From Acidobacteriota bacterium (GTDB taxonomy: Bacteria > Acidobacteriota > Thermoanaerobaculia > UBA5066): DNA of 64,000 bases. The notes under the pieces were generated by a model. That model did no database searches, was not told the origin of the DNA, and saw only the letters and a program-made list of their open reading frames with translations. The stretch is from the NCBI GenBank assembly GCA_029781975.1, contig JAKOVQ010000010.1, forward strand, positions 234,375 through 298,374, in the 5' to 3' direction. Below are positions 11,927 to 38,053 of the stretch, piece by piece. Position numbers and translations under genes: made by a program. Each line of letters opens with the position of its first letter. Position 1 is the stretch's first letter.

Positions 11927-11936
11927 GCGGACCGTC

Positions 11937-15684: not shown

Positions 15685-15709
15685 GAACAGTTTTCATTAT
15701 TATCCGGGC

Positions 15710-22851: not shown

Positions 22852-23985
22852 TCACCGGGCTCTCTCGCCGTGCGCCCCCCAGCGCGGCGACGGGAAGCCC
22901 TCGCCGAGGAGCTCCCCCGACGCGCCGAACCTCACGACGTAGGTGAACGGGTCGATCGCCCCCGCGAGGTGCCCGAACCTCAGGTCGCGCAGCTCCACCG
23001 TGACCCCTCCGTCGGGACGGGGCTCGGAGCGGGCCGCCGGGAAGCGCGCGAACCGTCCGAAGACCCCCTTCTCCCCCTCCACGAGGGCCCGCATCGAGAG
23101 GGGGCCGTCGGCCTTCGCGACGTCCTGCGGCCGGAGGGCGTCGGGCGAGGCGAAGAGGCCGTCGAGGTGGCGGAGGGCCGCGAGCGGCCCGGCCTCGCCG
23201 GAGGTCAGCCGGGAGAGGGAGTCGACGCCCCCCGCGACGCGCGGCGGAGAGGCCGTCCGGGAGAGGTCGACGAAGGCGGAGCGGACCCGCGCGCCGTCGT
23301 CCGAGAGGAGGAGCCAGCGGAACGGCGAGAGGGGCTGGGGGATGGCGGCCCGCGCCACGGCCCCCGGGAGCGCGATCGTCTCCCCCACGGCGAGGGCCCG
23401 GCCGTGCTGGACTCCGCAGAACGCGATGTATGCCGTGGCCGCCAGCGCGCCGGCCGTCGCGGCGAGGCGGGCGGAGCGCGGCCCCTGGCGGCGCCCCGCG
23501 GCTCGCGTGGCGAGGAGGCCGAGCGCGAGGAGGCCCGACAGGACGAGGTCGACGATGAAGACCCAGTCCAGGGAGTACCGCTCCCACGAGAGCGGCGAAA
23601 AGAACATCGTCCCCCACGACGTGATCCAGTCGAGGAGGACGTGGGACGCCAGCCCGACCGCCGAGACGAGCGAGAGACGGAGGAACGCCGCCCTTCGCCC
23701 TGGCGGCCCGCTCCCCCCCCGGGCGACGCCCCACGTCGCGACCACGCCGATCAGGAGCGCCCAGAGCGGCAGGAGGACGAACGAGTGCGAGAGCCCCCGG
23801 TGGTGGGTGATGTAGAAGTCCGCCGAGAAGGGGGAGAGGAGGGCGTCGAGGTCGGGCGCCATCGCCGCCGCGAAGCCGGTCCAGGCCTCGCGGCGGCGGA
23901 GCGCCGCCGCGAGCCCCTCGTCCCGGGGGGGCGGGAGCGCGCGCGCCAGGAGGGCGCCGGCCAGGCCGTGGGTGAGGGTATCCAT
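22852..23985 (-). CDS. Membrane-bound metal-dependent hydrolase (DUF457/YdjM-like) with a C-terminal extension
   Basis: The N-terminus MDTLTHGLAGALLARAL is typical of DUF457; several TM segments. The start was taken at the ATG at 23985, the complement of cat at 23983-23985. The longer track ORF, starting at 24540, adds a low-complexity GVG-rich sequence. Confidence 0.6.
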   Translation of the reverse strand: MDTLTHGLAGALLARALPPPRDEGLAAALRRREAWTGFAAAMAPDLDALLSPFSADFYITHHRGLSHSFVLLPLWALLIGVVATWGVARGGSGPPGRRAAFLRLSLVSAVGLASHVLLDWITSWGTMFFSPLSWERYSLDWVFIVDLVLSGLLALGLLATRAAGRRQGPRSARLAATAGALAATAYIAFCGVQHGRALAVGETIALPGAVARAAIPQPLSPFRWLLLSDDGARVRSAFVDLSRTASPPRVAGGVDSLSRLTSGEAGPLAALRHLDGLFASPDALRPQDVAKADGPLSMRALVEGEKGVFGRFARFPAARSEPRPDGGVTVELRDLRFGHLAGAIDPFTYVVRFGASGELLGEGFPSPRWGAHGERAR

Positions 23986-24022
23986 CGTCTCCCGGTCGCG
24001 GACGATACGCCCGGCTATCCTC

Positions 24023-26053
24023 ATGCGGATGCCGACACCGCTCCGATTCGCCGCCGGCCCCTTCGCCCTCGCCCTCCTCGCCGTCGTCGGCCTGGCCGGC
24101 GCTCGGGTCGCGCGCGGAGAAGAGCCGGCGGCGCCCGCGCCTTCGGGCGCGCCGACGGAGACGCCCGCGCCGACGCCCACCCCGACGCCGACCCCGGCAC
24201 CGACGCCAGCTTCGATACCGGCCCAGACGCCGACTCCGGCCCCGCCCGCGACGCCCGTCCCGCCCGTGCCGGCCCTGACGCCCGTGACCGCCGAAGTCGT
24301 CGCGGTCGCGACCCGGCTCGGCAGGGAGACCGAGGCGACGACGGTGAGGACCATCACGCGGGCCGAGATCGAGCACCTCCCCGTCCGGTCGGTCCCCGAG
24401 CTCCTCGCCACGCTGCCCGGCCTCGACGTGAGGCGCCGAGGCGCCGGGGGGGTCCAGGCCGACGTCGGGATCCGCGGCGCCGACTTCAACGGGACGCTCG
24501 TCCTCGTCGACGGCGAGCCGATGAACGACCCGCAGACCAACCACCACGCCTTCGACCTCGACGTCCCGCTCGACGCCGTCGAGCGGGTCGAGGTCCTATC
24601 CGGCGCTTCGTCGGCGCTCTACGGGACGGACGCGGTCGGCGGGGTCGTGAACATCGTGACCCGCGGAGCGAACCTCGGCCGCGCGCGGGCGCAGCTGGAG
24701 GGGCGGTACGCCCACGGGACCCAGTCGCGCGACGAGGGGGGGCTCCGGATCGCCTCGAAGCTGGGCGACGTCTTCACCGTCGCGGCCGACGCGTGGCGCG
24801 CCGAGTCGAGCGGCTTCCGCGACGACACCGAGTACGCGAACGACTCGCTCCACGCCACCCTGCGCGCCGACACGGGGGCAGGCCCGATCACCCTCTCGGC
24901 GGGGAGCGCGACGCGCGACTTCGGCGCCTACGCGTTCTACGGCACGCTCTACCCCGACCAGAAGGAGAAGACGCGGGTGAGGACCGCCCGCCTCGCGGCC
25001 GAGCTCCGCGCCGGGGCGTGGACCCTCGCCCCGTCGGTCTCCCTCCGCGACCACCACGACGACTTCGTCCTCGACCGGGCGAACCCGTCCTTCTACCGGA
25101 ACGTCACCGACACGAGCACCCTCACGGCCCGGGCGGTCGCCTCGCGTCCCCTCCTCGGCGGGACGCTCGCGTTCGGGGTCGAGGGGGGGAGCGACAGCGT
25201 CGACTCCACCGGCCTCGGAAGCCACGACCGCTCGCACGCGGCGCTCTTCTTCGAGGCGGGAGGGGCGTTCGCCCCGTCCCGGCCGGAGAAGGGGGGCTTC
25301 CGCGTGGGGCTGCGGGGAGATCGCTGGGACGACTACGGCTCCCGCCTCTCGCCGATGGCGGCGCTGTGGGCCTCGCCCGCCCGCGGGCTGAGGCTCCGCG
25401 CCTCCGTCGGGACCGCCTTCCGGGTCCCCACCTACACCGAGCTCTACTACCGGGACCCCCAGAGCGTCGGCAACCCGGACCTCTCCCCGGAGAGGGCGGT
25501 CAACATCGAGGGGGGCGTCACGTTCGACGCCGGCCCCGTCCGCCTCGACGCGGCGCTCTTCAAGCGCAGGGGACGCGACCTGATCGACTTCGTCCGCTCC
25601 TCGCCGTCGGAGCCGGCCGTCGCGCGGAACGTGAGGCAGGCGGACGTCTGGGGGATCGAGGCGACCGCCGAGCTCCTGCCCGAGCGGCTGGCCCGGACGC
25701 CGCTGACGCGCCTCGCGCTGGGCGCCACCTACCTCTTCCCCGACCTCGGCGGCCTCGAGGGGCTCACCGGCCGGTACGTCCTCGACCCGCCGCACGTCAA
25801 GTGGGACCTCCTGGCGGGAGGACGCCTCGTGCCGCGCCTCAACGCCCTCGCGCGCCTCTCGTACCTCTCGCGTCCGAGCTGGAGCGATTCCGTCGTCCTC
25901 CTCGACGCGAGGCTCGGGTTCGACCTCCTGGAGGGGAACGTCCTCGAGACGTACGTCGAAGGAGAGAACCTCGGCGGCGTCACGTACGAGGAGCGGCCCG
26001 GCGTCCCGCTCCCGGGCCGGACCGTCGCCGGCGGCTTCCGCTTCACCTGGTAG
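24023..26053 (+). CDS. TonB-dependent outer-membrane receptor with a Pro/Thr-rich N-terminal linker
   Basis: Signal peptide MRMPTPLRFAAGPFALALLAVVGLAGARVARG. A PT-rich tract TPAPTPTPTPTPAPTP… precedes plug-domain motifs (ITRAEIEHLPVRSVPELLATLPGLDV, GVGGVVNIVTR). The C-terminus ends in an aromatic residue: …GGFRFTW. Confidence 0.8.
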   Translation: MRMPTPLRFAAGPFALALLAVVGLAGARVARGEEPAAPAPSGAPTETPAPTPTPTPTPAPTPASIPAQTPTPAPPATPVPPVPALTPVTAEVVAVATRLGRETEATTVRTITRAEIEHLPVRSVPELLATLPGLDVRRRGAGGVQADVGIRGADFNGTLVLVDGEPMNDPQTNHHAFDLDVPLDAVERVEVLSGASSALYGTDAVGGVVNIVTRGANLGRARAQLEGRYAHGTQSRDEGGLRIASKLGDVFTVAADAWRAESSGFRDDTEYANDSLHATLRADTGAGPITLSAGSATRDFGAYAFYGTLYPDQKEKTRVRTARLAAELRAGAWTLAPSVSLRDHHDDFVLDRANPSFYRNVTDTSTLTARAVASRPLLGGTLAFGVEGGSDSVDSTGLGSHDRSHAALFFEAGGAFAPSRPEKGGFRVGLRGDRWDDYGSRLSPMAALWASPARGLRLRASVGTAFRVPTYTELYYRDPQSVGNPDLSPERAVNIEGGVTFDAGPVRLDAALFKRRGRDLIDFVRSSPSEPAVARNVRQADVWGIEATAELLPERLARTPLTRLALGATYLFPDLGGLEGLTGRYVLDPPHVKWDLLAGGRLVPRLNALARLSYLSRPSWSDSVVLLDARLGFDLLEGNVLETYVEGENLGGVTYEERPGVPLPGRTVAGGFRFTW

Positions 26054-26133: not shown

Positions 26134-26826
26134 ATGCACAAGATCCTGCTGGTCGACGACGCGAGGCACTTCCTCGACCTGGAGGCGTCCTTCCTCCAGC
26201 GCGCCGAGTGCCGGATCCTGACGGCGTCGACGGGGCTCGAGGCGGTCCGCGTCGCCCGCGCCGACCGCCCCGACCTGATCGTCCTCGACATCGAGATGCC
26301 CGAGATGAACGGGATCCAGGCCTGCCGGATCCTCAAGGGGGACGCGGCGACCCAGGCGATCCCGATCGTGATCCTCACCTCCATGCAGATGGAGGACGAA
26401 GCCCGCAGGGCCGGGGCGGACCACTTCCTGAGGAAGCCGATCGACGAGCCGCGCTTCCTCGCGGAGGTGCGGAAGTTCCTCCCGATCGTCGAGCGGAGCG
26501 ACCCGCGGGTCCCCGCCTCGCTCGCCCTCGCCACCTGGCGAGGGGGAGAGCCGGGGGAGGCGCACCTCGTCAACCTCTCGCGGACGGGCTTCTACGCCAC
26601 CAGCCCCGCTCCGCCCCCGGTCGGGTCGCGGCTCGAGGTCTCGTTCACGCTCCCGGGGGGGAACCCCGGCAAGCTCATCTCGGCCGAGGTCCTGGTGGTG
26701 AGGGTCGGCGCCGACGGGGCCGGCTTCGCCGCGCGCTTCTTCCGGATCTCCTCGGGCGCCCGCCTCTTCGTCGACGAGTTCGTCGAGAAGGGGATCCCCT
26801 CGGTCCGCCCGGCGCCGGTCCCCTGA
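26134..26826 (+). CDS. Response regulator: CheY-like receiver domain fused to a C-terminal PilZ-like domain
   Basis: MHKILLVDDARHFLDLE…DLIVLDIEMPEMNG (the phospho-acceptor Asp in LIVLD)…ILTS…FLRKP. The C-terminus …HLVNLSRTGFYATSP…GSRLEVSF…GADGAGFAARF resembles PilZ. This is the tail of the spurious track ORF 22504..26826. Confidence 0.65.
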   Translation: MHKILLVDDARHFLDLEASFLQRAECRILTASTGLEAVRVARADRPDLIVLDIEMPEMNGIQACRILKGDAATQAIPIVILTSMQMEDEARRAGADHFLRKPIDEPRFLAEVRKFLPIVERSDPRVPASLALATWRGGEPGEAHLVNLSRTGFYATSPAPPPVGSRLEVSFTLPGGNPGKLISAEVLVVRVGADGAGFAARFFRISSGARLFVDEFVEKGIPSVRPAPVP

Positions 26827-26844
26827 GTCCCCCGGCTCGCCGCG

Positions 26845-27285
26845 TCAGCGGCGCGGCGCGCCCCCCCCGAGGTCGATGAGCCGGATCCCGGCCCGCTCGG
26901 CGTACTCGAGGATCCGCGGCTCGCGGTAGAACTCGCCGAACGAGATCGCCGAGAGCCCCGCGTTCGCGATCAGCTTGAAGCAGGGCCAGCAGGGGGAGGC
27001 GGTCGTGTAGATCTCGCCCCCCTCGATCCTCACCCCGTTCATCGCGGCCTGGAGGATGGCGTTCGCCTCGGCGTGGACCGTGGCGATGCAGTGCCCCTCC
27101 TCCATCAGGCAGCCGACCTCGTCGCAGTGGGGAAGCCCCCGGAGCGACCCGTTGTAGCCGGTGGAGAGGATCCGGCGGTCCCTGACGATCACCGCCCCGA
27201 CGTGCTTCCGCGGGCAGGTGGAGCGGCTCGCCACCTCGGCGGCGATGTTCATGAAGTAGCGGTTCCAGTCGACGCGCTCGGCCAC
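26845..27285 (-). CDS. dCMP/CMP deaminase (zinc-binding, ComEB-like)
   Basis: Zinc-binding motifs HAEANAI and PCWPC. The N-terminus VDWNRYFMNIAAEVASRSTCPRKHVGAVIV is typical of dCMP deaminases. The start was placed at the GTG at 27285 with GGAG 5 nt upstream. The upstream part of the track ORF is low-complexity. Confidence 0.7.
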   Translation of the reverse strand: MAERVDWNRYFMNIAAEVASRSTCPRKHVGAVIVRDRRILSTGYNGSLRGLPHCDEVGCLMEEGHCIATVHAEANAILQAAMNGVRIEGGEIYTTASPCWPCFKLIANAGLSAISFGEFYREPRILEYAERAGIRLIDLGGGAPRR

Positions 27286-27358
27286 GGCTCCATTATCGGG
27301 GGAGGGGCTGCCTCCGCCGAGGGCGATTCCGGGGGGCCGCCCCGTGTACCATCGACGC

Positions 27359-28573
27359 ATGCCCCAGAGATCCGCCGTGGTCACCGGCCTGGGGGCGGTG
27401 ACCTCCCTCGGCAACGACCTCGCGAGCTCCTGGGCCGGCCTGGTGGCCGGCCGGTGCGGGATCGGGCCCATCACGGTCTTCGACCCCACGGGCTTCCGGA
27501 CGAACCTCGCCGCGGAGGTCCGCGCGCTCCCCGACGCCTGGATCGACGGCCGCCTCAGGCGCCGCCTCTCCCGGAGCGACGTCCTGGGGCTGACGGCGGC
27601 CCGCGAGGCGCTCGCCGGCTCCGGGATCGACCTCTCCGCCGAGGACCCGGCCCGGATCGCCGTCGTCCTGGGAGGGGGCGTCTCGGGGCTCCTCGACGCC
27701 GAGAACTACTACCGCGACCTCCTCTCGAAGGGCTTCCGGCGTGCCCGGCCGACGAGGGCCCTGAACCACCCCCCCGACCAGACGACCGACCGGATCGGCG
27801 AGCTCTGGGGCTTCTGCGGCCCGCGGGCCACCATCACGACCGCCTGCTCCTCCTCCGCCACCGCGATCGGCTACGCGGCCGACCTGATCCGCCACGGCAT
27901 CGCCGACGTCGTCGTCACCGGCGGCGCCGACTCGCTGGGGCGCCTCACCCACGGCGGCTTCAACGCCCTGCGCGCCGTCGACCCCGACCCCTGCCGGCCG
28001 TTCGACCGGAACCGGAAGGGGCTGACGATCGGCGAGGCGGCCGGGATCCTCGTCCTCGAGGAGGAGGAGCGCGCGCACAAGCGCGGCGCCCCGGTCCGCG
28101 CCCGGTTCCTCGGGTACGGCGTCACCGCCGACGCCCACCACATGACCCAGCCGGAGCCGAGCGGCGTCGCCGGCGCGCGGACGATCACCGCCTGCCTGAA
28201 GGCGGCCCGCCTCTCCCCGGAGGACGTCGACTACGTCAACGCCCACGGGACAGCCACCCAGCAGAACGACTCGGCCGAGACCGCGTCGATCAAGCTCGCG
28301 CTCGGCGAGAGGGCCCACCGCGTCCCGGTCTCCTCCTCGAAATCCATGCTCGGCCACTGCCTCTGCTCGGCCGGCGGGATCGAGGCGGTCGTCACCGTCC
28401 TCACCGTCGAGACGGGGATCCTCCCCCCGACGATCCACTACGAGGAGCCCGACCCCGAGTGCGACCTCGACTACGTCCCGAACACCGCCCGCGAGGCGCG
28501 CGTCCGCGTGGCCCTCTCGAACTCCTTCGCCTTCGGCGGGAACTCCACCGTCGTCGCGTTCGGAAGGGCCTGA
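27359..28573 (+). CDS. Beta-ketoacyl synthase (KS-alpha, FabF-like) with the Cys-His-His triad
   Basis: Active-site Cys in TITTACSSSATAIGYAAD; His in HHMTQPEP and VNAHGTAT; GHCLCSAGGIE; N-terminus AVVTGLGAVTSLG. ATG at 27359. Confidence 0.85.
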   Translation: MPQRSAVVTGLGAVTSLGNDLASSWAGLVAGRCGIGPITVFDPTGFRTNLAAEVRALPDAWIDGRLRRRLSRSDVLGLTAAREALAGSGIDLSAEDPARIAVVLGGGVSGLLDAENYYRDLLSKGFRRARPTRALNHPPDQTTDRIGELWGFCGPRATITTACSSSATAIGYAADLIRHGIADVVVTGGADSLGRLTHGGFNALRAVDPDPCRPFDRNRKGLTIGEAAGILVLEEEERAHKRGAPVRARFLGYGVTADAHHMTQPEPSGVAGARTITACLKAARLSPEDVDYVNAHGTATQQNDSAETASIKLALGERAHRVPVSSSKSMLGHCLCSAGGIEAVVTVLTVETGILPPTIHYEEPDPECDLDYVPNTAREARVRVALSNSFAFGGNSTVVAFGRA

Positions 28574-28598
28574 CGATGCGCGTCGCCCAGGAGCGCCG

Positions 28599-29726
28599 GT
28601 GAAGGCGCCCGTCGTCACCGGGGTCGGGGCCGTCACCCCGCTGGGGCGCGACATCCGGACGACGCGCGACCGCCTCGCCGCCGGGGCGTGCGCCATCGCC
28701 GACGTCGAGGCGCCGGAGGTCCCCGTCCGGCCGCTCCGCTCCCCCGCGGCCCGGATCGGGACCTTCACGACGGAGCCGGAGATGCCCCGCTCGAAGGCCC
28801 GCCGCCTCGACCGCGGCAGCCAGTACGCCGTCGTCGCCATCCGCCAGTGCCTCGCCGACGCCGGCTACGACGTGAAGGGGCGCGAGGACGACATGGGGAT
28901 CCTCCTCGGCTCGGGCTCCGCCGGAGCCGGCCCGCTCACCGACCTCGAGCGCCAGATGGCGGTCGAGTCGCCCGAGGCGGCCTCCCCGTTCCTCTTCCCG
29001 TACACCGTCGCCAACGCGCCGGCCTCGCTCGCGGCGATCGAGCTCGGCGTCCGCGGCCCGAACGTCACCATCACGCAGAAGGACCCGGCGGGGCTGAACG
29101 CCGTCTTCTACGCCCGGATGCTCCTGGCCGACGGGCGCGCCAGCGCCCTCGTGGCCGGCGGGGCCGACGAGTGGAACCTCACCTACCACCTCGCCTACGA
29201 GCGGCTCCACGCCACCCGGACTCAGAGCACGCCGGGGTACGCCCTCTCGGAGGGATGCGCGGTCCTCCTCCTCGAGGACGAAGACTCCGCGCGCGAGCGG
29301 GGCGCCCGGGTCCTCGCCCGCCTCGCCTCGATCGTCTCCACCGGCCGCCCCGTCTCTCCCCACCGGCGACGGACGCGAGCGACCGACGTGGCCGAGACGC
29401 TCGGCGAGGCGCTCGTCGACGCGGGGATCGAGCCGGACGCCGTCGGGCGCTTCGACCCGCGGCGCGTCGGGCTCCTCCACCTCTCGGCGAACGGCGTCCC
29501 CTGGATGGACGAGGCGGAGCGCAAGGCGGTCGAGCTGCTCTTCGGCCCGCACCCGCCGCCCCTCCGGACCATCAAGCACCAGATCGGCGAGAACCCGGTC
29601 GTCGGCGCGCTCCAGCTCGCCCTCTCCGCCCTGGCGCTGGGAGAGGACCCCTCGCTCGGCGCCGCCGTCGTCAACGTCCTCGGCGCGGGCGGCAACCAGA
29701 TCACCGCCGTCCTGACGGCGCCGTGA
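28599..29726 (+). CDS. KS-beta / chain-length-factor-like ketosynthase paralog, with the active-site Cys replaced by Gln
   Basis: A KS-like fold (VVTGVGAVTPLG…), but the position equivalent to the catalytic Cys reads VTITQKDPAGLNA (Gln). It lies 25 nt downstream of the KS gene, in the typical KS/CLF tandem arrangement. Confidence 0.7.
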   Translation: MKAPVVTGVGAVTPLGRDIRTTRDRLAAGACAIADVEAPEVPVRPLRSPAARIGTFTTEPEMPRSKARRLDRGSQYAVVAIRQCLADAGYDVKGREDDMGILLGSGSAGAGPLTDLERQMAVESPEAASPFLFPYTVANAPASLAAIELGVRGPNVTITQKDPAGLNAVFYARMLLADGRASALVAGGADEWNLTYHLAYERLHATRTQSTPGYALSEGCAVLLLEDEDSARERGARVLARLASIVSTGRPVSPHRRRTRATDVAETLGEALVDAGIEPDAVGRFDPRRVGLLHLSANGVPWMDEAERKAVELLFGPHPPPLRTIKHQIGENPVVGALQLALSALALGEDPSLGAAVVNVLGAGGNQITAVLTAP

Positions 29727-29782
29727 CGGCGTGACCATGCCGTGACCATGCCGTGACCACGCCGTGACCACGCCGTGACGAC
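29720..29782. repeat. Tandem 11-bp repeat array, 5-6 copies of gccgtgaccay, in the intergenic space between the CLF-like and thioesterase genes
   Basis: The array reads gccgtgacg-gcgtgaccat-gccgtgaccat-gccgtgaccac-gccgtgaccac-gccgtgacgac. The CLF stop TGA (29724-29726) lies inside the first unit. Every unit contains GTGA. Confidence 0.8.
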
Positions 29783-29816
29783 GCCATCCCTTCCGGCGAA
29801 GCCGCGCCCCTTCCGG

Positions 29817-30245
29817 ATGGAGGTCGACGTCCGCTTCCCGGAGGTCGACTCCTACGGCGTCGTCTGGCACGGCCACTACGTCCTCTACTTCGAGATCGTG
29901 AGGGACGCCCTCTGCACGGCCGGCGGCTTCTCCCCCTCCCAGGGGCTCGCCCTCGGCTACAAGGTCCCGATCACACGGTTCGAGGCCCAGGTGAGGCGCC
30001 CCGCCCTCCTCGACGACCGGCTCGAGCTCTCGTGCGTCCTCCGCCCCCCCGAGACCGCCAAGCTCGAGATGGAGTACGAGGTCCGCCGCGCGGCGACGCG
30101 CGAGCTCCTGGCGACCGGCTTCACCCAGCAGGTCTTCCTCAACCCGCAGGGCGAGCTGATGCTGACCTTCCCGATGCAGGTCCGCGGCCTCGTGGAGCGG
30201 GTCCTCGCCTTCCACCGGGGCGAGGCCGAGCTCGGCCGCGGCTGA
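29817..30245 (+). CDS. Hotdog-fold acyl-CoA/ACP thioesterase (4HBT/YbgC family)
   Basis: MEVDVRFPEVDSYGVVWHGHYVLYFE is the classic 4HBT N-terminus, with catalytic Asp and His context. The track ORF starts at the GTG at 29775, inside the repeat array. ATG at 29817 was preferred. Confidence 0.7.
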   Translation: MEVDVRFPEVDSYGVVWHGHYVLYFEIVRDALCTAGGFSPSQGLALGYKVPITRFEAQVRRPALLDDRLELSCVLRPPETAKLEMEYEVRRAATRELLATGFTQQVFLNPQGELMLTFPMQVRGLVERVLAFHRGEAELGRG

Positions 30246-30249
30246 CCGC

Positions 30250-30867
30250 TCAGCCCGCCTTCCGCGCCGTCGCCAGGAAGATCGGGTAGTCGCGATCGCC
30301 CTTCCGGGTGACGGTCGCCGTCTCGACGGCCACGTCGACGAACCCCGCAGCCCTCAGGAGCGCGGCGATACCGTCCCGCTCGAACCCGAGGTGGACGACG
30401 CCGGCCGGGTCCTCGTGGAACGTCCCGTCCTCCGTGTCGAGGTCGGCGAGGGCGACGCGGCCGCCGGGGCGCAGGTGCTCGCGGAACGCCGCGAAGAGCG
30501 GCGCCAGCTCCTTCACGTGGTGGAGCGCCATGCTGCTGACGACGAGGTCGTAGCTCCCCGGCACCGCGAAGGGAGCGTCGGCGGGAAGGAGGACGGCGCT
30601 CACCCCCTCGAGCCCCTGCTCACGAACCTTCGTCCGGAAGACGTCGAGCATCCCGGACGACGTGTCGACCCCCGTGACGCTCCTGACGAGCGGCCCGAGC
30701 GCGAGCGAGACGAGGCCGGTGCCGCAGCCGAAGTCGAGGACGTCGATGTCGGCCGGAAGGCCGCACCGCGCCACCATCGCCTCCGCGACCGCCCGCGCCA
30801 TCTTCACCCGGCGCCCCTCGCCGTCCCACGTCGCCGCCGCCTGGTCGAACCGCTCGGTTCCCGACAT
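30250..30867 (-). CDS. Class I SAM-dependent methyltransferase
   Basis: SAM motif VLDFGCGTGLVSLAL; acidic loop VVSSMALHH; RPGGRVALADL. The ATG at 30867 lies 2 nt after the stop of the upstream VOC gene. Confidence 0.75.
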   Translation of the reverse strand: MSGTERFDQAAATWDGEGRRVKMARAVAEAMVARCGLPADIDVLDFGCGTGLVSLALGPLVRSVTGVDTSSGMLDVFRTKVREQGLEGVSAVLLPADAPFAVPGSYDLVVSSMALHHVKELAPLFAAFREHLRPGGRVALADLDTEDGTFHEDPAGVVHLGFERDGIAALLRAAGFVDVAVETATVTRKGDRDYPIFLATARKAG

Positions 30868-30869
30868 CG

Positions 30870-31274
30870 TCACGCCCCGGGCGGCGTCGGGACCGGCGCC
30901 GGCGGCTGCCAGAGCTCGACCCGGTTCCCCTCCGGGTCCATCACCCACCCGAACGCCCCGAATTCCGACCGCTCGACCTTCTCGTCCACCGCGCACCCCT
31001 CGGCGCGGAGCGCCGCGAGGACCGCGTCGAGGTCGTCGACCCGGTAGTTCACCATGAACGGAGCCGGGCTCGGGTCGAAGTAGGTCGACGACGCCGCGAA
31101 GATGGTCCAGACGGTCATCCCGTCGGGCTCCGGCCGCTCCGGCGTCTGCCAGCGGAACGCCGTCCCTCCCCACTCCTCCACCGCGATCCCGAGGTGGTCG
31201 CGGTACCACGCCCGGAGCGCCTCGGGGTCGCGCGCCTTGAAGAAGATCCCGCCGATTCCCGTCACTCGCGTCAT
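30870..31274 (-). CDS. VOC-family protein (glyoxalase/bleomycin-resistance fold)
   Basis: MTRVTGIGGIFFKARDPEALRAWYRDHLGI…GWVMDPEGNRVELWQ is the typical VOC beta-alpha-beta-beta-beta signature. The ATG at 31274 was verified as cat at 31272-31274. Confidence 0.65.
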   Translation of the reverse strand: MTRVTGIGGIFFKARDPEALRAWYRDHLGIAVEEWGGTAFRWQTPERPEPDGMTVWTIFAASSTYFDPSPAPFMVNYRVDDLDAVLAALRAEGCAVDEKVERSEFGAFGWVMDPEGNRVELWQPPAPVPTPPGA

Positions 31275-31481
31275 GGCCGCCTCCCTGGGGCGGACGATAG
31301 CCCAGCCCGCCCCTCCGTCGCGCTGCGGCGCGATCGGTCCCCGTCTCCTGCCGACCCGCGGTGCCGCCCCCCAGGGGGACGGTTCACGCGCCGGACCGGG
31401 TATCCTCCCCGCGCAGCAGACCGAATCCGACCCCGGTTTCGTGACGGCTCCGGCCCGCCGTCCGGCGAGGAGCTCCGACCG

Positions 31482-32015
31482 ATGCCCGACGCGAAAGCCG
31501 ACCCCGCCCCCGACCTCGCGTTCCTCGAAGGGACCCCCGTCTTCGGCGCCCTCGAGCGCCCCGCCCTCGAGCTGGTCGCCGAGCACCTCGAGCGGCGGCT
31601 CCTCCCGCCGGGCCGGCTGGTCGTGGCGGAAGGCGAGGGGGCGCGGGAGATGTACGTTCTGGAGAACGGCGCCGTGGAGGTCCTCGTCCACCGCGCCCCC
31701 GGCGACGGCGACGACCTCGTCGTCGCGAAGCTCGGCCGGGGCGACTGCTTCGGCGAGATGGCGCTCCTCGACGTCCAGCCCCGGTCTGCCACCGTCAGGA
31801 CACTCGACGAGACCTCGCTCCTCGTCCTCCGCTACCGGGAGCTCCTCGAGATCCGGCGGCGGGACCCGGAGGCGTTCCTCCTCCTCGTCCTCAACCTCGC
31901 CCGCGAGGTGTCGCGCCGGCTCCGCGGCTGCGAGCGGCACCTCCTCGACCTCCTCCACCGGCTCCCCGAGGGGAGCGCCGTCGCGCAGGAGGTCTTCGGG
32001 TCGAGGCGGGCCTGA
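31482..32015 (+). CDS. Cyclic-nucleotide-binding domain protein (Crp/Fnr-type cNMP-binding domain, no obvious HTH)
   Basis: GDCFGEMALL…RSATVRTL is the cNMP-binding signature. ATG at 31482 with a GAGGAG-like RBS. Confidence 0.7.
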   Translation: MPDAKADPAPDLAFLEGTPVFGALERPALELVAEHLERRLLPPGRLVVAEGEGAREMYVLENGAVEVLVHRAPGDGDDLVVAKLGRGDCFGEMALLDVQPRSATVRTLDETSLLVLRYRELLEIRRRDPEAFLLLVLNLAREVSRRLRGCERHLLDLLHRLPEGSAVAQEVFGSRRA

Positions 32016-32066
32016 CGCCGGACCAGCGGCCGGGTCGAGGCTGCCTCACCCGATCTCGAACGGCAG

Positions 32067-32576
32067 TCAGCCCGGCCGGCGCTCCACGTGCTCGCGGAGC
32101 GCCGTCATCAGGCCGCCCCACCAGAGCCCCATCATCCGGCTGAAGTCGGCGCCGGCGAGGCCGTGCCGGACCGGGTGGCCCTCCCTCAGCGCGGCGAAGC
32201 CGCGGTGACGGACCGTCACCAGCGTCCCGTCGCGCGACGGTGCGAAGAGGACGGTGACGAAGGTCTTCTCGCCCGGCGCGAAGTTGACGACGCGCCACTC
32301 CATCTCGAGACGCGCGGGGGGCTCCCAGACCGTGACCCGCCCCACCTCGAAGGTGTGCGAGCCGCTCCCCGTCTCGAACGTCTCGAAGAGCCGCCCCGAC
32401 GGGCCGGTCTCGAAGCAGAGCCTCCCCGCCCGGCGCCCGGCGATCCGGTAGCGCGGCCCCGTCCGCCACCAGAGGTCGATCTCGGTCGTGAAGACGTCCC
32501 ACGCGACGTCGGGAGGGACGGCGACGAAGACCGTGGCCGAGGCGGAGTCGCCCGGCCCCGGAGCCGGCCCGCTCAT
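32067..32576 (-). CDS. SRPBCC-family protein (AHSA1/polyketide-cyclase-like)
   Basis: MSGPAPGPGDSASATVFVAVPPDVAWDVFTTEIDLWW…EMEWRV is the typical AHSA1/SRPBCC N-terminus. The start overlaps the ArsR stop (ATGA). Confidence 0.65.
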   Translation of the reverse strand: MSGPAPGPGDSASATVFVAVPPDVAWDVFTTEIDLWWRTGPRYRIAGRRAGRLCFETGPSGRLFETFETGSGSHTFEVGRVTVWEPPARLEMEWRVVNFAPGEKTFVTVLFAPSRDGTLVTVRHRGFAALREGHPVRHGLAGADFSRMMGLWWGGLMTALREHVERRPG

Positions 32577-32911
32577 CGCCTCCCCTTCCCGCGGGCTCGC
32601 TCGGCGTGCCGCTTGAACGCGGCGAGCTCGACCGTCCAGAACGCCTCGACCTCCGCGAGCCAGCCCTTCAGGCCGGCGAACGGCTCGGGGCGGAGGCGGT
32701 AGACCCTGACGCGGGCGTCCTCGCCCGTGTGCTCCTCGTCCACCAGCCCCGCCGTCCGGAGGACGCGCAGGTGGCGGCTCATCGCCGGGGCGGAGAGCCC
32801 CAGCTCGCCCGCCAGCTCGCCGGCCCGGCGCGGCCGCCGCCGGAGGAGGTCGACGGCGGCGCGGCGCGCCGGGTCGGCCAGGGCCTGGAGGGTCCGGTCG
32901 AGGTCGCTCAC
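32573..32911 (-). CDS. ArsR/SmtB-family transcriptional regulator
   Basis: LQALADPARRAAVDLLRRRPRRAGELAGELGLSAPAMSRHLRVLRTAGLV is a winged-helix ArsR HTH. The start was taken at the GTG at 32911 (GAAGG upstream). The ATG at 32977 is the alternative. Confidence 0.7.
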   Translation of the reverse strand: MSDLDRTLQALADPARRAAVDLLRRRPRRAGELAGELGLSAPAMSRHLRVLRTAGLVDEEHTGEDARVRVYRLRPEPFAGLKGWLAEVEAFWTVELAAFKRHAERARGKGRR

Positions 32912-33369
32912 GCCTTCGGCTGCGGGGACCGGAGCCGCTGGCAGAACCACCAGTGGTGCCCCTCGAGGTCCTCGCACTCGTAGCAGCGGTCGCTCCAGTA
33001 GTCCTCGCCGTAGTCGTGGGTCTCCGGCCCGGCGCAGACCTTCGCCCCCGCCGCCCGCGCCCGCGCGCAGTGAGCCTCCACGTCGTCGACGAAGACCATG
33101 ACGCTCTGCGTGTTGGCGCCGTCCAGCTCCCCCGGGCTCCGGCGGTAGGGGAACCTCTCCTCGTCCTTCCTCGCGTCACCCACGATCACGAGCCCGTCGC
33201 CGTAGACGAGCTCGCTGTGCTCGATCCGCCCCCCCTCCCCCTCGACCTTGAGGCGGACCTCGAAGCCGAAGGCGTCGCAGAGGAAGTCGATCGCCCGCGG
33301 GGCGTCGACGTAGTAGAGAGCCTGGGAGATCCGCGGCCAGCCCGGAGGGGAGGGGTTCGTCGGCTTCAT
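32908..33369 (-). CDS. VOC-family/glyoxalase-like protein (PhnB-like)
   Basis: ALYYVDAPRAIDFLCDAFGFEV…GDGLVIVGDA…MVFVDDVEAHCARARAAGAKV…EDLEGHHWWF. It is the first gene of a minus-strand operon VOC–ArsR–SRPBCC with overlapping stop/start codons. Confidence 0.65.
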   Translation of the reverse strand: MKPTNPSPPGWPRISQALYYVDAPRAIDFLCDAFGFEVRLKVEGEGGRIEHSELVYGDGLVIVGDARKDEERFPYRRSPGELDGANTQSVMVFVDDVEAHCARARAAGAKVCAGPETHDYGEDYWSDRCYECEDLEGHHWWFCQRLRSPQPKA

Positions 33370-33540: not shown

Positions 33541-34920
33541 CTAGGCCCCGGCGCCCCCCTTGGGGAACGTCGCGACGGCGCGCGTCGGCTGGCCGTCGCC
33601 GGAGAGGAGCGCCAGCGTCCCGCCGTGCCCCTTCACGATCCGGTCGGCGATCGGGAGGCCCAGGCCGGTCCCGGCGTCCTTCGTGGAGACGAAGAGGCGG
33701 AAGACGTCCGCGGCCTTCGTCGGCGGGACGCCGGGCCCCTTGTCCTCCACCGTCAGCTTCCAGCACCGGCCGCCGTCCTCCACGGCCACGGAGACCTCAC
33801 GGGCGGTCGCCCCCTCGCTCTCGACGGCGTCGAGCGCGTTGACGACGAGGTTGAGGACGACCTGCTTGACCCGGGCCACGTCGAGCCGTGCCGGCGCGCC
33901 GCCGGGGTGGGGCCGGTAGGCGAGCTGGATGTTCCGCTTGGCCGCTTCGGGGAGCAGGAACGCGACCGCCTCCCCCGCCGGCTCGTTCAGGTCGGCCGGA
34001 ACGGGCGAGAGGGGCGACGGGCGGGCGTACGAGAGGAAGTCGGTCAGGAGGCGGGCCAGGCGCCCGGTCTCCTGCCGCGCCGCCTGCGTCAGGTCGGCGG
34101 CGGCAGCGATCGTCGCGGGACCCGCGGTGGCCTGCTGGAGCTGCTCCTCGAGGAGCTCGAGGTTGAGGCTCATGGCGTTCAGCGGGTTGCGGATCTCGTG
34201 GGCCAGGCCGGTCGCCACCTCGCCCAGCTCCGCGCGCCGCTCGGCCTCGACGCGCGCCTCCTCGACGGCGCGCGTCCGCCGGACGAGGAGCATGACGGCC
34301 GTCGACGCGGCCGCGATGCCGAGGAGCGAGGCGAGGGCGGCGGCGAACGTCCGGACGTAGAGCTTCTTCCGGAGGACCTCCACCCGCCCCTCGAGCTCCT
34401 TCTGCGAGAGCCCCACCTTCAGGACGCCGAAGTCGGCGATCGGGACCTCGACGGCGTAGGGGTCCGAGATCTTCGAGGTCGACTCCCAGCTGCTCTCCGG
34501 GGGCTGGAGCGGGCTGGTGTCGAGCTCGGGCCCGCGCCGTCCCTCCGGGGCCACGCCTCCCTCCGGCTGGGGCTTCTGCAGGACGCCCGTGTAGGCGTAG
34601 ACGAGCTTCCCCTTGCTGTCGTAGACGCGGACCTCCGAGAGGACCTGCCGCTCCTTCAGCGTGGAGCCGACGAAGAGGTCGGTCTCCTTCTGCCTCCGCT
34701 TCAGGGTGTAGAGGTCCCCCCCGGCCCGCTCGACCAGGCCCTTGGCGATCCGCTCGGCGTCCCACCTCGAGTAGAGGAGCGCCTCGTCGACCACGTCCTT
34801 CGAGAGCGCCTTGAAGAGGAGGTGCCCGAAGAGGAAGACCGACCCGGCCGTCAGGAGGCCGAGGAGCGAGAGCGTGATCGTGAGGTTCCGGCGAAAGCGC
34901 CGGGTTTCGGGGTCCGACAC
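33541..34920 (-). CDS. Sensor histidine kinase (2 TM segments, a periplasmic loop, HisKA and HATPase_c domains)
   Basis: H-box LAHEIRNPLNAM; N-box VVLNLVVNALDA; G-boxes DKGPGV and GTGLGLPIA. TM segments at the N-terminus and near aa 190. Confidence 0.85.
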   Translation of the reverse strand: MSDPETRRFRRNLTITLSLLGLLTAGSVFLFGHLLFKALSKDVVDEALLYSRWDAERIAKGLVERAGGDLYTLKRRQKETDLFVGSTLKERQVLSEVRVYDSKGKLVYAYTGVLQKPQPEGGVAPEGRRGPELDTSPLQPPESSWESTSKISDPYAVEVPIADFGVLKVGLSQKELEGRVEVLRKKLYVRTFAAALASLLGIAAASTAVMLLVRRTRAVEEARVEAERRAELGEVATGLAHEIRNPLNAMSLNLELLEEQLQQATAGPATIAAAADLTQAARQETGRLARLLTDFLSYARPSPLSPVPADLNEPAGEAVAFLLPEAAKRNIQLAYRPHPGGAPARLDVARVKQVVLNLVVNALDAVESEGATAREVSVAVEDGGRCWKLTVEDKGPGVPPTKAADVFRLFVSTKDAGTGLGLPIADRIVKGHGGTLALLSGDGQPTRAVATFPKGGAGA

Positions 34921-34967: not shown

Positions 34968-35522
34968 ATGCCCGCGACTCCCGGCCCCGCCCCCTCCGCG
35001 CGAAAAGGCCTCCGGCCCGAGAGCGCCTTCCTCCTGAAGTTCCTCGGCCTGATGGCCCTCTTCTTCCTCGCCGTCGCCCCGAAGCCGATGAACGACGCGC
35101 TCGTCGAGCCGTTCACGTCCCTCGTCGCCCGGGCGGGCGGGACGGCCTGCCGGCTCTTCGGCGAGCCGACGGAGATGCGCGGCACCGCGATCGTCTCTCC
35201 CCGCTTCTCGGTCAACATCCGGAACGGCTGCAACGGCCTCGAGACGATGTTCATCTTCGGCGCGGCGGTCCTCGCCTTCCCGGCCCCGTGGAAGGTGCGG
35301 CTCCTCGGCCTCCTGGGCGGCTTCGCCGGGATCCAGCTGATCAACCTCGTGAGGATCGTGTCGCTCTTCTACATCGGGATCCACTTCCCGAAGCTCTTCG
35401 AGGAATCCCACATCGTCGTCTGGCAGGTGATCGTCGTCCTCGGCGGGGTGGCGCTCTTCCTGCTCTGGGCGGGGCGCTTTGCTCTCCCGGCTCGATCCAA
35501 GAATCCGGTCGCTGCTCCTTAG
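34968..35522 (+). CDS. Small polytopic membrane protein with exosortase/archaeosortase-like catalytic motifs (Cys, Arg, His)
   Basis: FSVNIRNGCNGLETMFIF gives Cys in a C-x-G context; IQLINLVRIVSLF gives the N..R(I/V) motif; ESHIVVWQVIVVLGGVALF gives H…G…F. The order and spacing resemble the exosortase catalytic core. The family assignment is tentative. Confidence 0.4.
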   Translation: MPATPGPAPSARKGLRPESAFLLKFLGLMALFFLAVAPKPMNDALVEPFTSLVARAGGTACRLFGEPTEMRGTAIVSPRFSVNIRNGCNGLETMFIFGAAVLAFPAPWKVRLLGLLGGFAGIQLINLVRIVSLFYIGIHFPKLFEESHIVVWQVIVVLGGVALFLLWAGRFALPARSKNPVAAP

Positions 35523-36072
35523 GCTCCCGCTGGCCGCGGCCGCCGCGCTCCTGGCGTGGTACGCGGCCCTGGAGGGGGCCTGGGGCACGCTGGTGGCAGG
35601 GGTGACGGAGCCCCTCGTCCGGCTCTTCGAGCGGACGCCCGTCACCCGGCTGACCCTCGAGGGGACGCTCCTCGTCGTCTCGCGGAGCGACCTCTCGAGC
35701 GACTCGGCCCTCCCGTCGTTCGCCCTCGCGCCGATCACGGTGAACCTGGTCCTCCTCCTGGCGCTCCTCTGGGCGACGCCACGGACGCTCCGGGCCGAGG
35801 GGCTCTGGAGGATCGCGGCGGCGCTCGGGGCGCTTCTGGCGAGCCACGTCCTCCACCTCATCCTGACGGTGGAGACGCTCTACGCGACGAGCCTCGGGCC
35901 CTGGAGCGTCGCCGCCTACCCGAGGTGGCAGCGCGAGGTCCTGGCGACGGGACGCTACTTCTTCGACATCGCGCTGAAGTACGCGCTCCCGTTCGTCCTC
36001 TGGGCCCTCACGCTGGACCTCGCGCCCTTCGAGGAGCGAACGGCGAGGGCGCCGAGGCGCCGGAAGCGCTGA
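35479..36072 (+). CDS. Hypothetical polytopic membrane protein. The ORF overlaps the previous gene by 44 nt, so the start is uncertain or there is a frameshift.
   Basis: 4-5 hydrophobic segments (LLRLPLAAAAALLAWYAAL…, ITVNLVLLLALLWA…, LGALLASHVLHLIL…, ALKYALPFVLWALTL). No motif recognised. Confidence 0.4.
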   Translation: MLSRLDPRIRSLLLRLPLAAAAALLAWYAALEGAWGTLVAGVTEPLVRLFERTPVTRLTLEGTLLVVSRSDLSSDSALPSFALAPITVNLVLLLALLWATPRTLRAEGLWRIAAALGALLASHVLHLILTVETLYATSLGPWSVAAYPRWQREVLATGRYFFDIALKYALPFVLWALTLDLAPFEERTARAPRRRKR

Positions 36073-36124: not shown

Positions 36125-38053
36125 TCAGTCGTCGTGCTTCTTGAGGTAGCGGTAGTCCTTGATGTCGTACTCCTTCATCTTCGCGATCAGGCTGCCGCGC
36201 GAGATGTTCAGGAGCCGTGCGCCGAGGGACTGGTTCCCGCGGACCTTGCGCATGACGCGCTCGATGACCTGGCGCTCGACCTTCTCGACGATCTCCTTGA
36301 GGTCGTCGCTCTCGGCCAGCGCCACCTCGAGCCGCTCCTCCCCGAACTTCGGGTCGAGGTCCTTGAGCTTCACGGGGCCCGCGCCGAGGGTCGCGGCGAG
36401 GCGGCGGCACTCGTTCTCCAGCTCCCTCACGTTCCCGGGGTAGCTCGCCGCGAGGAGGGCGTTCATCGCCTCGACGTCGAAGGCCGACGCGGGGGGGCCG
36501 CCGTGGCGGACGGCGAAGGCGTCGAGGAGGGCCGGGAGGTCCTCCTTCCGGTCGCGCAGGGGGGGGAGGCGGACGGTGAGAGTCGCCAGCTCGTAGTAGA
36601 GGTCCTCGCGGAAGGTCCCCTCCTCCATCGCCCGCGTCAGCGGCCGGGAGGTCGTCCCGATGACCCGGACGTCGACCGACGCCGACCGCCCGCCGGGTCC
36701 CACCACCTCGCGCGTCTTCAGGAGGCGGTAGAGGAGCGCCTGCGTGGGGGCGGGGAGGTCGCCCACCTCCTCGATGAGGAGCGTCCCGCCGTCCGCCTCG
36801 AAGAGGCGGCCCGTCCGCCTCCGCCGGTCGGCGGGGCCCGGGCTCCCGAGGAGGTCGTCCTCGAGCGCCGCGGCGGTGGAGGCGGTGGCGGCGATCCTCA
36901 CGAGCGGCCGGGGCCTCCTCGGGGAGAGGGCGTGGAGGGTCTCGGCCGCCAGCGTCTTCCCCGTCCCGACGTCGCCGATCACGAGGACCGAGGCGCGCGT
37001 GGCGGCGATCCGCTGCAGGGACGCCCGGAGGTTCTCCATCGGGAGCGAGTTCCCGACGACCGCCGAGAGCGGCTCCTCGAGGACGACGCTCTGCGGCAGG
37101 GGCTGCGGCGCCACGCCCCGCTCGCCGAACGGGGCCTCGGCCCGCTCGGCGTGGACGAGCCCGGCGGCGGAGGCGAGGCCGAGCGCGAAGTCGTTCATCC
37201 CCGCGTCGGCGGCGAGCTCGTTCGGGAGGACGAGGAGGCCGACCACCTCGGCCAGCGGCCGTGTGACCGGGTAGACGCGGATCCGCGTCCCCGCCTCGAA
37301 CGCGTCGACGGGCGCGCCCGACTCCATCACCTCGTCCACCGTCTTGCGCGACAGCTTCGGGAGGGTCCCCTTCCAGATGGCCGCCACCGCCTCGCCGGCG
37401 CTGGCCTCGGCGATCGAGAGGAACGCCACGCTGTGGACGGGCGTCGAGGAGGAGAGGTAGGAGGCCACGTCCTGGAGGCGCTCCTCGAGCGCGGACCCGC
37501 CCCGGAGCCTCGCGAAGACCTCCGGCCAGACCTCGCCGGGCCGGAACGCCGGGCCGGCCGCCGGACGCGGGTACGAAGGGGGCGCCTCGTACCGCGGCGC
37601 GGGGCGGGCCGGCGGCTGGGCCGGAGGCTCCGGAGCGCGCGGCGCGGCCGGCGCGGGGGCGGCCGGTGCCTGGGGGCTCGGCGCGAGGGCCGCGGCGGCC
37701 ATCGAGAAGGCGTCCCGTCCCCGGGCCGGAGGGGCGGAGATCCTGTTCGGGTTCGGAGCAGGGCCGTTCAGGAGAGTGATCGTCGCCTCGCCAATCGAGA
37801 TCCGGTCCCCCGCCGACAGCGAAGCGGACTTGACGATCGACCCGTTCAGCAGCACGTCGGAGCCGGGAGCCGAACCGAGTACGTCCAGCCGAAGCTCGTC
37901 TCCGGTCACCGAGATCCGTGCGTGCCGTCCCAGGACACCGCGCGCCCTCACGACCAGGTCGTTACCCGACGAGGCGCCGATGTGGATGACGTCCCGGTGG
38001 ACCTTTCGGACCTCCGACTCGCCGCCGGGCTTGCGGACCTCGAAGCTCAACAT
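36125..38053 (-). CDS. Sigma-54-type AAA+ transcriptional activator with an N-terminal FHA domain and a C-terminal Fis-type HTH. The GAFTGA loop is degenerate.
   Basis: FHA domain: IHIGASSGNDLVV…GRHARI…NGS. Walker A in VLVIGDVGTGKT; Walker B LLIEEVGDL; arginine finger region GNVREL. The C-terminal HTH reads RGNQSLGARLLNISRGSLIAKMKEY. Where GAFTGA should be, the protein reads GSPGPADRRRRTG. GGAGG lies 8 nt upstream of the ATG at 38053. Confidence 0.75.
   Translation of the reverse strand: MLSFEVRKPGGESEVRKVHRDVIHIGASSGNDLVVRARGVLGRHARISVTGDELRLDVLGSAPGSDVLLNGSIVKSASLSAGDRISIGEATITLLNGPAPNPNRISAPPARGRDAFSMAAAALAPSPQAPAAPAPAAPRAPEPPAQPPARPAPRYEAPPSYPRPAAGPAFRPGEVWPEVFARLRGGSALEERLQDVASYLSSSTPVHSVAFLSIAEASAGEAVAAIWKGTLPKLSRKTVDEVMESGAPVDAFEAGTRIRVYPVTRPLAEVVGLLVLPNELAADAGMNDFALGLASAAGLVHAERAEAPFGERGVAPQPLPQSVVLEEPLSAVVGNSLPMENLRASLQRIAATRASVLVIGDVGTGKTLAAETLHALSPRRPRPLVRIAATASTAAALEDDLLGSPGPADRRRRTGRLFEADGGTLLIEEVGDLPAPTQALLYRLLKTREVVGPGGRSASVDVRVIGTTSRPLTRAMEEGTFREDLYYELATLTVRLPPLRDRKEDLPALLDAFAVRHGGPPASAFDVEAMNALLAASYPGNVRELENECRRLAATLGAGPVKLKDLDPKFGEERLEVALAESDDLKEIVEKVERQVIERVMRKVRGNQSLGARLLNISRGSLIAKMKEYDIKDYRYLKKHDD

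Follow-up and report, generated by a model that had tools for sequence, protein, structure and literature searches.

We analyzed a 64,000-nt stretch of DNA (hereafter the window; G+C approximately 73%) from an Acidobacteriota genome of the class Thermoanaerobaculia, contig JAKOVQ010000010.1, and focused on three consecutive genes. These encode an active ketosynthase (KS1), a ketosynthase-fold partner that lacks the nucleophilic Cys (KS2, the KS' of the pair), and a hotdog-fold thioesterase (TE). The trio is a ketosynthase/chain-length-factor (KS/CLF)-like module related to type II polyketide synthase (PKS) and fatty acid synthase (FAS)-like systems, without local tailoring genes. It probably encodes a CLF-like KS/KS' heterodimer plus a releasing thioesterase, with acyl carrier protein (ACP) and reductases borrowed in trans, and we assign this reading a probability of roughly 0.55. 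The three genes and a repeat at the KS2-TE junction lie at the following positions:

27344 (GTG) or 27359 (ATG)..28573, plus strand: KS1, active FabF-like beta-ketoacyl synthase (Pfam, NCBIfam, triad columns)
28599..29726, plus strand: KS2 (KS'), CLF-like partner predicted to be catalytically dead (Pfam, alignments, AlphaFold2 model, Foldseek)
29726..29785, plus strand: 11-nt tandem repeat (ACGCCGTGACC, 5.5 copies) (Tandem Repeats Finder, sequence, alignment with five related loci)
29775 (start GTG)..30245, plus strand: TE, 4HBT/YbgC-FadM-type hotdog thioesterase (Pfam 4HBT_2, PDB relatives, conservation)

A sequence-only reading of the same DNA had proposed three genes at these positions, with KS2 25 nt after KS1 and a 4HBT thioesterase next. 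Pfam searches together with AlphaFold and Foldseek confirmed this arrangement, and the distance from the KS1 stop to the KS2 start is exactly 25 nt.

KS1 matched both Pfam ketoacyl-synthase domains (E 4e-38 and 2.5e-35), and its start is more likely ATG 27359 than GTG 27344. Cys168 (TACSSS), His301 (NAHGTAT), Lys333 and His338 (MLGHCLC) align with B. subtilis FabF residues. The Cys-His-His triad recognized in the sequence-only reading holds for Cys168, His301 and His338, but not for the motif HHMTQ, which had been counted in it; the second His is the one in MLGHCLC. In the PDB, both KS1 and KS2 are matched best, by sequence as well as by fold, by housekeeping FabFs (KAS II); the top PDB match of KS1 was B. 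subtilis FabF, at 342 bits, and KS1 carries the whole catalytic apparatus. KS1 scored 410 bits with PRK07314 (beta-ketoacyl-ACP synthase II), over the subfamily cut-off of 387, and 418 bits with TIGR03150, under the FabF equivalog cut-off of 493.75; the NCBI name of its orthologues is only that of a "family protein". We also placed KS1 in a neighbor-joining tree of limited sampling and without support values, which included three FabFs (B. subtilis, E. coli and T. thermophilus). It joined the KS partners of KS' proteins (47–57% identity), apart from the three FabFs (38–43%). KS1 differs from FabF in its profile score and its branch, and also in being paired with a dead paralogue outside any fab cluster.

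KS2 is a 375-aa protein. Pfam detected the KS N-terminal domain at E 6e-26, while the C-terminal domain is degenerate and gave a faint match, and the score with TIGR03150 was 138.6 bits. An AlphaFold2 monomer model built on 38 homologues (pLDDT 88.7) contained two lobes and superimposed on FabF structures in Foldseek with a TM-score of 0.83; in hhalign, the C-terminal lobe was short by approximately 30 residues. The active site was located by phmmer against S. aureus and P. aeruginosa FabF, by hhalign of the KS2 and KS1 family profiles, and by a MAFFT alignment that took in FabF, KS partners and fusion proteins. All three alignments set Asp162 opposite the nucleophilic Cys, with Gln160 at the Cys-2 position and Lys161 between them, so that Gln160-Lys161-Asp162 stands in place of Thr-Ala-Cys. 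The first catalytic His (FabF His303) is replaced by Ser296 and the second (FabF His340) by Glu331, whereas FabF Lys335 is retained as Lys326. Both His residues of ketosynthases are also required for malonyl decarboxylation. Judged from these residues, the Q-K-D/Ser/Lys/Glu site of KS2 is predicted to be dead and non-condensing.

This placement changes the identity given to KS2 in the sequence-only reading. That reading had rightly seen that the position does not hold a Cys, but it had put Gln there and taken a Cys-to-Gln exchange as the hallmark of a KS-beta subunit; the aligned residue is Asp, and the Gln belongs two residues upstream. Nor did a comparison with the actinorhodin (act) CLF support that identity, since KS2 scored 52 bits against it in phmmer, lower than the 115 bits against FabF; the scores against two further CLFs, Iga12 and AntE, were 57 and 54 bits.

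Homologues of KS2 are named Thermoanaerobaculia or Holophagales. When its active-site residues were counted over 119 homologues, Lys161 and Asp162 were invariant, and Gln160 was present in 116 of the 119. KS2 also has an invariant basic helix, K66-A-R68-R69-L-D71, which aligned with the helix by which the partner subunit of FabF docks ACP. The segment 128-141 (SPFLFPYTVANAP) was also invariant, yet its pLDDT was below 50 in the monomer model. An invariant segment left unplaced in a monomer would fit an interface loop that becomes ordered only in the dimer.

TE matched Pfam 4HBT_2 at 37.4 bits, which passes the cut-off of 25.5, and its PDB relatives include 5v10, 6fdg and YbgC. Asp25, His32, Gly33 and Tyr35 were each at least 95% conserved in 79 orthologues, and the catalytic-type Asp25 aligned with the Asp of YbgC-type proteins. 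The GTG start at 29775 is homologous to the starts of the orthologues; an alternative ATG lies at 29817. In five aligned related loci, the KS2 stop and the TE start overlap as ATGA or GTGA, whereas the window has a 48-nt gap filled by the tandem repeat, with several out-of-frame GTGA units. Judged from these alignments, the repeat is an amplified form of the ancestral overlapping stop/start junction (..CCGTGA..). The same KS2-TE spacing was found in a Logan contig (L001). A promoter and terminator scan of positions 26700-31500 found neither element.

To place the trio in a broader context, we compared 80 related loci, taken from a scan with one genome per GTDB species and all derived from Thermoanaerobaculia or Acidobacteriota metagenome-assembled genomes (MAGs). 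Synteny was assessed by tblastn with the window's own proteins. The order dCMP deaminase (minus strand, divergent)/KS1/KS2/TE was found in essentially all sufficiently long loci (approximately 80 at species level), with identities to the window proteins of 62–81% for KS1, 43–71% for KS2 and 44–70% for TE. KS1 and KS2 were separated by no more than 30 nt in 59 of 70 loci, with stop/start overlap in 25; for KS2 and TE, the gap was no more than 30 nt in 68 of 74 loci and the codons overlapped in 65. In some relatives, genes were inserted within the unit, namely those for peptidases, an MFS transporter and surface proteins; none encoded an ACP, ketoreductase (KR) or dehydratase (DH). KS1-KS2-TE is a class-wide, vertically inherited core operon in a housekeeping neighborhood (dCMP deaminase, SMC, Lon), not an island-like biosynthetic gene cluster (BGC).

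A search of 1.84 billion cluster representatives with the KS2 family profile returned its own family at 646 and 385 bits, followed by fused and standalone KS' proteins. Among the best 150 matches, 88 were 740–880 aa long, the size of fused KS-KS' proteins, whose C-terminal halves ranked among the best non-family matches (200–260 bits). When 14 fusions were split and aligned, the N half had Cys-His-His in all 14 and the C half lacked the Cys in 13. Named examples were a Moorella protein, which NCBI calls a "beta-ketoacyl synthase chain length factor", and Paenibacillus shirakamiensis WP_209860693. Both of the fusion contexts examined were complete type II PKS/FAS-like clusters: the Paenibacillus cluster held an ACP, two short-chain dehydrogenase/reductase (SDR)/KR genes, an ApeP-like DH, a malonyl transferase (MAT), a phosphopantetheinyl transferase (PPTase) and a 4HBT_2 thioesterase, and the other held ACPs, KR, MAT, further KS genes and a polyketide cyclase. 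These Firmicutes fusions resemble the trio in joining an active N-half KS to a KS2-related C half, and in the Paenibacillus case also in the thioesterase. They differ from it in being single chains, in a Cys position that is occupied variously by Gly, Arg, Gln or other residues, and in having their own ACP, KR, ApeP-like DH, MAT and PPTase, in clusters that appear to be uncharacterized.

The standalone KS' proteins were approximately 410 aa long, and many of them read Gln/Glu/Ser/Lys/Glu at the five KS2 positions; in the MAFFT alignment, at least 12 standalone representatives combined Gln at Cys-2 with Glu at the Cys position. In five context loci of standalone proteins a KS adjoined the KS', upstream of it in four. 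KS2, which reads Q/D/S/K/E and is encoded directly after an active KS, belongs to the Q-K-[D/E]/Ser/Lys/Glu family delimited here. Variants were also seen: one MAG had the same dCMP deaminase/KS/KS'/TE arrangement with His at -2 and Ser at 0, and a Thermoanaerobaculia paralogue pair (P0248) had Gln at the aligned Cys position and no thioesterase. A Schekmanbacteria contig held a KS-KS' pair alone. The recurring Q-K-[D/E]/S/K/E signature sets apart a wide, uncharacterized family of KS partners, found in several acidobacterial lineages and in Schekmanbacteria. Looser KS' relatives are fused in Firmicutes and structurally solved in anammox bacteria.

Two acidobacterial relatives have richer surroundings. 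A UBA4820 locus (L089) has the order MAT-KR-ACP-FabZ-like hotdog-KS-KS'-TE, with identities to the window of 51% (KS), 36% (KS') and 43% (TE). Its core is like the trio in its KS-KS'-TE order and in its dead-site pattern, which has Glu for Asp, and unlike it in the MAT-KR-ACP-hotdog genes directly upstream, none of which reached housekeeping cut-offs. We considered whether this locus was a housekeeping fabD-fabG-acpP-fabF cluster and rejected it: MAT scored 152 (cut-off 260.9), KR scored 268 (cut-off 297.75), and the ACP was of the PRK09184 type. By these values it is a dedicated system rather than the FAS of the cell. A Vicinamibacterales locus (L088) lies in an aryl polyene (APE)-like lipid cluster with LolA, an LpxL-like acyltransferase and a glycosyltransferase, and it also has a YdjM gene. 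APE clusters also hold LolA-like, acyltransferase and glycosyltransferase genes. The clade of the window has lost, or never had, neighbors such as those in these two loci.

We then compared the trio with characterized systems. In the type II PKS KS/CLF pairs of known structure (act, 1TQY; AntD/AntE, 6SMO; ishigamide Iga11/Iga12, 6KXD), as in the trio, an active KS lies upstream of a Cys-less KS-fold partner. In KS-CLF pairs the KS gene lies upstream and is often translationally coupled, and the CLF is considered to give the pocket its shape and to take part in ACP docking (PMC9006962). KS1 scored 244 bits against act KS and 238 bits against Iga11. Unlike the act, Ant and Iga CLFs, KS2 has Asp instead of Gln at the nucleophile position, and its 52–57 bits against them compare with the higher score against FabF. 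Of the minimal set of an aromatic type II PKS, the Cys-His-His KS is present in the trio; a Gln-type KS-beta, a local ACP or cyclase, and a partner whose sequence is nearest to CLFs are not. The trio further differs from such systems in having no adjacent KR and in forming a class-wide operon instead of a BGC.

The comparison with aryl polyene synthesis gave a similar outcome. ApeC is a half-size protein with a single thiolase fold, and the APE cluster contains two ACPs, a KR (ApeQ), DHs (ApeI/ApeP) and a second KS (ApeR) (PMC8358021). KS2, in contrast to ApeC, is full size with both lobes modeled, and of the hotdog and partner genes of the APE cluster the trio has only the hotdog thioesterase, whereas the Vicinamibacterales relative does have such a cluster. 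The type II PKS-like core proposed by the sequence-only reading is thus borne out in its KS/CLF architecture and in its fusion and cluster relatives, but the trio is neither of the actinorhodin type nor of the ApeO/ApeC type.

A further relative is a solved heteromer of anammox bacteria (Brocadiaceae; PDB 9S5H/9S5I), which pairs a KS bearing Cys-His-His with a dead KS'. KS1 scored 327 bits against its active chain. Its KS' resembles KS2 in keeping the Lys, in having Glu at the second-His position and in the motif FPNTVxNAPAS, and differs in having Asn/Val for Gln/Asp and a full length of 412 aa; the match covered only the N-terminal half, at 65 bits. Chains B and C of 9S5H/9S5I are approximately 90% identical to Brocadia proteins. 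A literature search on 9S5H found no paper describing the complex, and searches on FabF heterodimers with cryo-EM and on heterodimeric ketosynthases in fatty acid synthesis returned nothing relevant.

Carrier and reductive partners were not found beside the trio. In agreement with the sequence-only reading, no ACP, KR or DH was detected among the open reading frames (ORFs) of the window that were scanned with Pfam, and no ACP by a phosphopantetheine-motif scan of the window. The window and the 80 related loci likewise yielded neither a PP-binding nor a cyclase gene, and in none of the approximately 80 Thermoanaerobaculia genomes did a malonyl transferase, ACP, KR or DH accompany the trio at the locus. 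An SDR upstream of the operon in a distant subgroup (32 loci) was not counted, because its similarity to KRs is the generic one of SDRs and two genes separate it from the operon. As no carrier or reductive enzyme travels with the trio, the housekeeping FAS II ACP and reductive enzymes most likely act in trans.

On these grounds we propose the following scheme. KS1 would catalyze a decarboxylative Claisen condensation between an acyl thioester and malonyl-ACP. KS2 would be a structural partner without a condensing role, which would complete the acyl pocket at the dimer interface and provide an ACP-docking surface. The thioesterase would release or edit the product, and the housekeeping ACP, FabG, FabZ and possibly FabI would be used in trans. 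The product may be a defined chain destined for the cell envelope, either fatty-acyl or polyketide-like with partial reduction. Indirect indications of a KS1-KS2 heterodimer are the KS-CLF-like gene order and coupling (PMC9006962), the natural fusions, the basic helix of KS2 and the segment 128-141. The solved anammox complex demonstrates that KS plus KS' heteromers exist outside aromatic PKSs. The UBA4820 trio, standing after MAT-KR-ACP-hotdog, and the conserved catalytic Asp of TE also argue for a KS/KS' pair acting with a thioesterase.

Several observations weigh against this scheme. The invariance of Lys161 and Asp162 and the recurrence of Q-K-[D/E]/S/K/E in distant relatives hint that the "dead" site is perhaps functional in itself and not purely structural; it is conceivable that the strictly conserved Q-K-[D/E]/Ser/Lys/Glu constellation of KS' proteins constitutes a new site for catalysis or for ACP gating. 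TE scored 42.7 with TIGR00051 (NCBIfam YbgC/FadM), under the cut-off of 68.7. The phosphopantetheine-motif scan found no ACP in the 80 related loci either, and neither AcpP nor an extra FabF was found in approximately 2 Mb of DNA of the relatives, a sample of two genome regions only. Finally, the product of the trio is entirely inferred.

The same conservation could be explained if KS1/KS2 were the housekeeping elongating ketosynthase, a heterodimeric replacement of FabF, and TE a YbgC-like housekeeping acyl-CoA/ACP thioesterase. The class-wide operon in its housekeeping neighborhood, the lack of a dedicated ACP, KR or DH, the high conservation of KS1 and its score over the PRK07314 cut-off would all suit such a role. 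We nevertheless regard it as unlikely, since KS1 falls short of the FabF equivalog cut-off, its orthologues bear only a "family protein" name, it groups with the KSs of dedicated non-housekeeping clusters apart from the three FabFs, and acpP, fabG and fabD do not adjoin the operon. Less probable still is a route to beta-keto acids or methyl ketones, in which KS1/KS2 would extend an acyl-ACP or acyl-CoA by a single malonyl unit and a FadM/MKS2-like TE would hydrolyze the unreduced 3-ketoacyl thioester. FadM and plant MKS2 are hotdog-fold thioesterases that act on 3-ketoacyl thioesters. Such a route would need neither KR nor DH, and the conserved set is indeed limited to a KS, a KS' and a 4HBT/YbgC-FadM-type thioesterase; the specificity of TE, however, is not readable from its sequence, and the KR and FabZ-like hotdog beside the UBA4820 trio point to a reducing pathway in the wider family.

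Taken further, the sequence-only reading would amount to a trimmed type II PKS or aryl polyene cluster, with Gln-dependent priming by a KS-beta and with the neighboring methyltransferase, VOC protein, halogenase and AMP-ligase as tailoring enzymes. The architecture of a KS, a Cys-less KS and a hotdog TE fits this proposal, as do the Gln at the aligned position in the Thermoanaerobaculia paralogue family P0248 and the APE-like cluster around the Vicinamibacterales relative. KS2, however, has Asp rather than Gln at the nucleophile position, lacks both catalytic His residues and resembles the act, Ant and Iga CLFs no more closely than it does FabF, and neither a cyclase nor an ACP is present. The supposed tailoring genes fail as well, as the methyltransferase and VOC genes lie in a genome-specific insertion and the halogenase, AMP-ligase and FkbM genes are unlinked to the trio. 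We consider this proposal very improbable.

The insertion lies between TE and a conserved histidine kinase:

30250-33369: 3.1-kb insertion, genome-specific

It carries genes for a SAM methyltransferase, a VOC protein, a cNMP-binding protein, an AHSA1/SRPBCC protein, ArsR and a second VOC protein. None of these genes (the methyltransferase, both VOCs, the cNMP-binding, AHSA1 and ArsR genes) was found in the 80 related loci. In close relatives the histidine kinase (window 33541-34920) directly follows TE, which identifies 30250-33369 as a genome-specific insertion. The methyltransferase and VOC genes named by the sequence-only reading do exist, but as all 80 loci lack them, they do not count as tailoring genes of any conserved cluster. 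Also present, as that reading had described, are a Trp-halogenase-like, an AMP-binding and an FkbM gene; their linkage to the trio does not hold, because they are not syntenic with it and the stretch in between encodes a Ser/Thr kinase, YdjM, a TonB receptor, a response regulator-PilZ protein and dCMP deaminase.

Further downstream, two genes were considered as tentative partners of the trio:

34968..35522, plus strand: exosortase H (XrtH), tentative partner (TIGR04177, 105 bits, passing the cut-off of 86)
35479..36072, plus strand: XrtH-associated membrane protein, tentative partner (NF041730, 23 bits, cut-off 35; weak Pfam XrtH_assoc match)

Cys88, Arg129 and His148 of XrtH were invariant in the set A2, and the membrane protein follows XrtH syntenically in related loci. 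In the window, the pair lies 4.7 kb downstream of TE, after the insertion and the histidine kinase; an intermediate order, TE/histidine kinase/XrtH, was found in two metagenome contigs (L093 and L095). In a more distant (sister) Thermoanaerobaculia subgroup, the XrtH start lay within 30 nt of the TE stop in 33 of 34 scorable loci, and 23 of these 33 overlapped. In this large subgroup, KS1, KS2, TE, XrtH and the XrtH-associated protein are encoded by five tightly coupled genes of a single operon. An XrtH-centered scan weakened the link: 35 of the 56 loci with enough upstream sequence had no KS, KS' or TE nearby, and in these 35 XrtH adjoined pyrimidine-biosynthesis or other unrelated genes, which suggests that the trio-XrtH link is lineage-specific. 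No IPTLxxWG- or PEP-CTERM-like protein tails were found in the window, and literature searches on XrtH and on exosortase with ketoacyl synthase returned nothing relevant. It is possible, if decidedly doubtful, that the trio makes a dedicated acyl chain for the XrtH system, perhaps the lipid anchor of XrtH-processed surface proteins, analogous to the anchoring to lipid that has been proposed for substrates of archaeosortases.

Beside this pair, a sigma-54 activator gene (window 36125-38053, minus strand) encodes a protein with FHA/Yop-YscD at its N-terminus in place of a receiver domain. In NCBIfam this protein matched the PEP-CTERM-box response regulator best, below cut-off, and relatives have the gene conserved next to either the histidine kinase or the XrtH pair.

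Other parts of the window showed further features. At its edge, positions 2-7747 (minus strand) hold an ORF of at least 2582 aa with 12 CarboxypepD_reg repeats, DUF6531 and an RHS repeat, which looks surface- or toxin-like. Positions 10946-17323 encode an NMT1-type ABC transporter (three genes), an FG-GAP/ASPIC protein, the Trp-halogenase-like flavoprotein and a 300-aa protein without a Pfam match. The Trp-halogenase-like gene, the only one of these searched in related loci, matched one locus, away from the KS genes. Upstream of the trio, the YdjM-family ORF (22852-24540, minus strand) has a long N-terminal extension and overlaps the TonB-dependent receptor ORF (23972 or 24266-26053, plus strand) on the opposite strand by approximately 270-570 nt, so one of the two starts was probably called too early. 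Two large genes without a Pfam match, of 1127 aa (plus strand) and 766 aa (minus strand), lie at 48097-53787; the 766-aa product, which is rich in Ala, Leu and Gly, resembles a polytopic membrane protein, and the AT skew at 52-54 kb is unusual (0.36). Positions 55298-60073 encode a TPR-CHAT protein (1165 aa) and then an AAA_14/DUF4143 ATPase, and the G+C content is 0.67 from 60 kb onward. The region from 55298 onward may be mobile or defense-like.

Thermoanaerobaculia are abundant, almost uncultured Acidobacteria of soils and sediments, and their lipid biology is essentially unknown. In genome mining, it would be a mistake to count the locus, together with the neighboring "tailoring" genes, as a natural-product BGC. 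The KS' family with the Q-K-[D/E]/S/K/E signature merits biochemical attention. If the proposed reading of the trio is correct, a class-wide KS/KS' pair standing apart from ACP, KR and DH genes would represent a CLF-like partner that serves the primary fatty acid machinery rather than a self-contained cluster. If the XrtH link were functional, it would also offer a handle on the long-standing question of what exosortases attach their substrates to.

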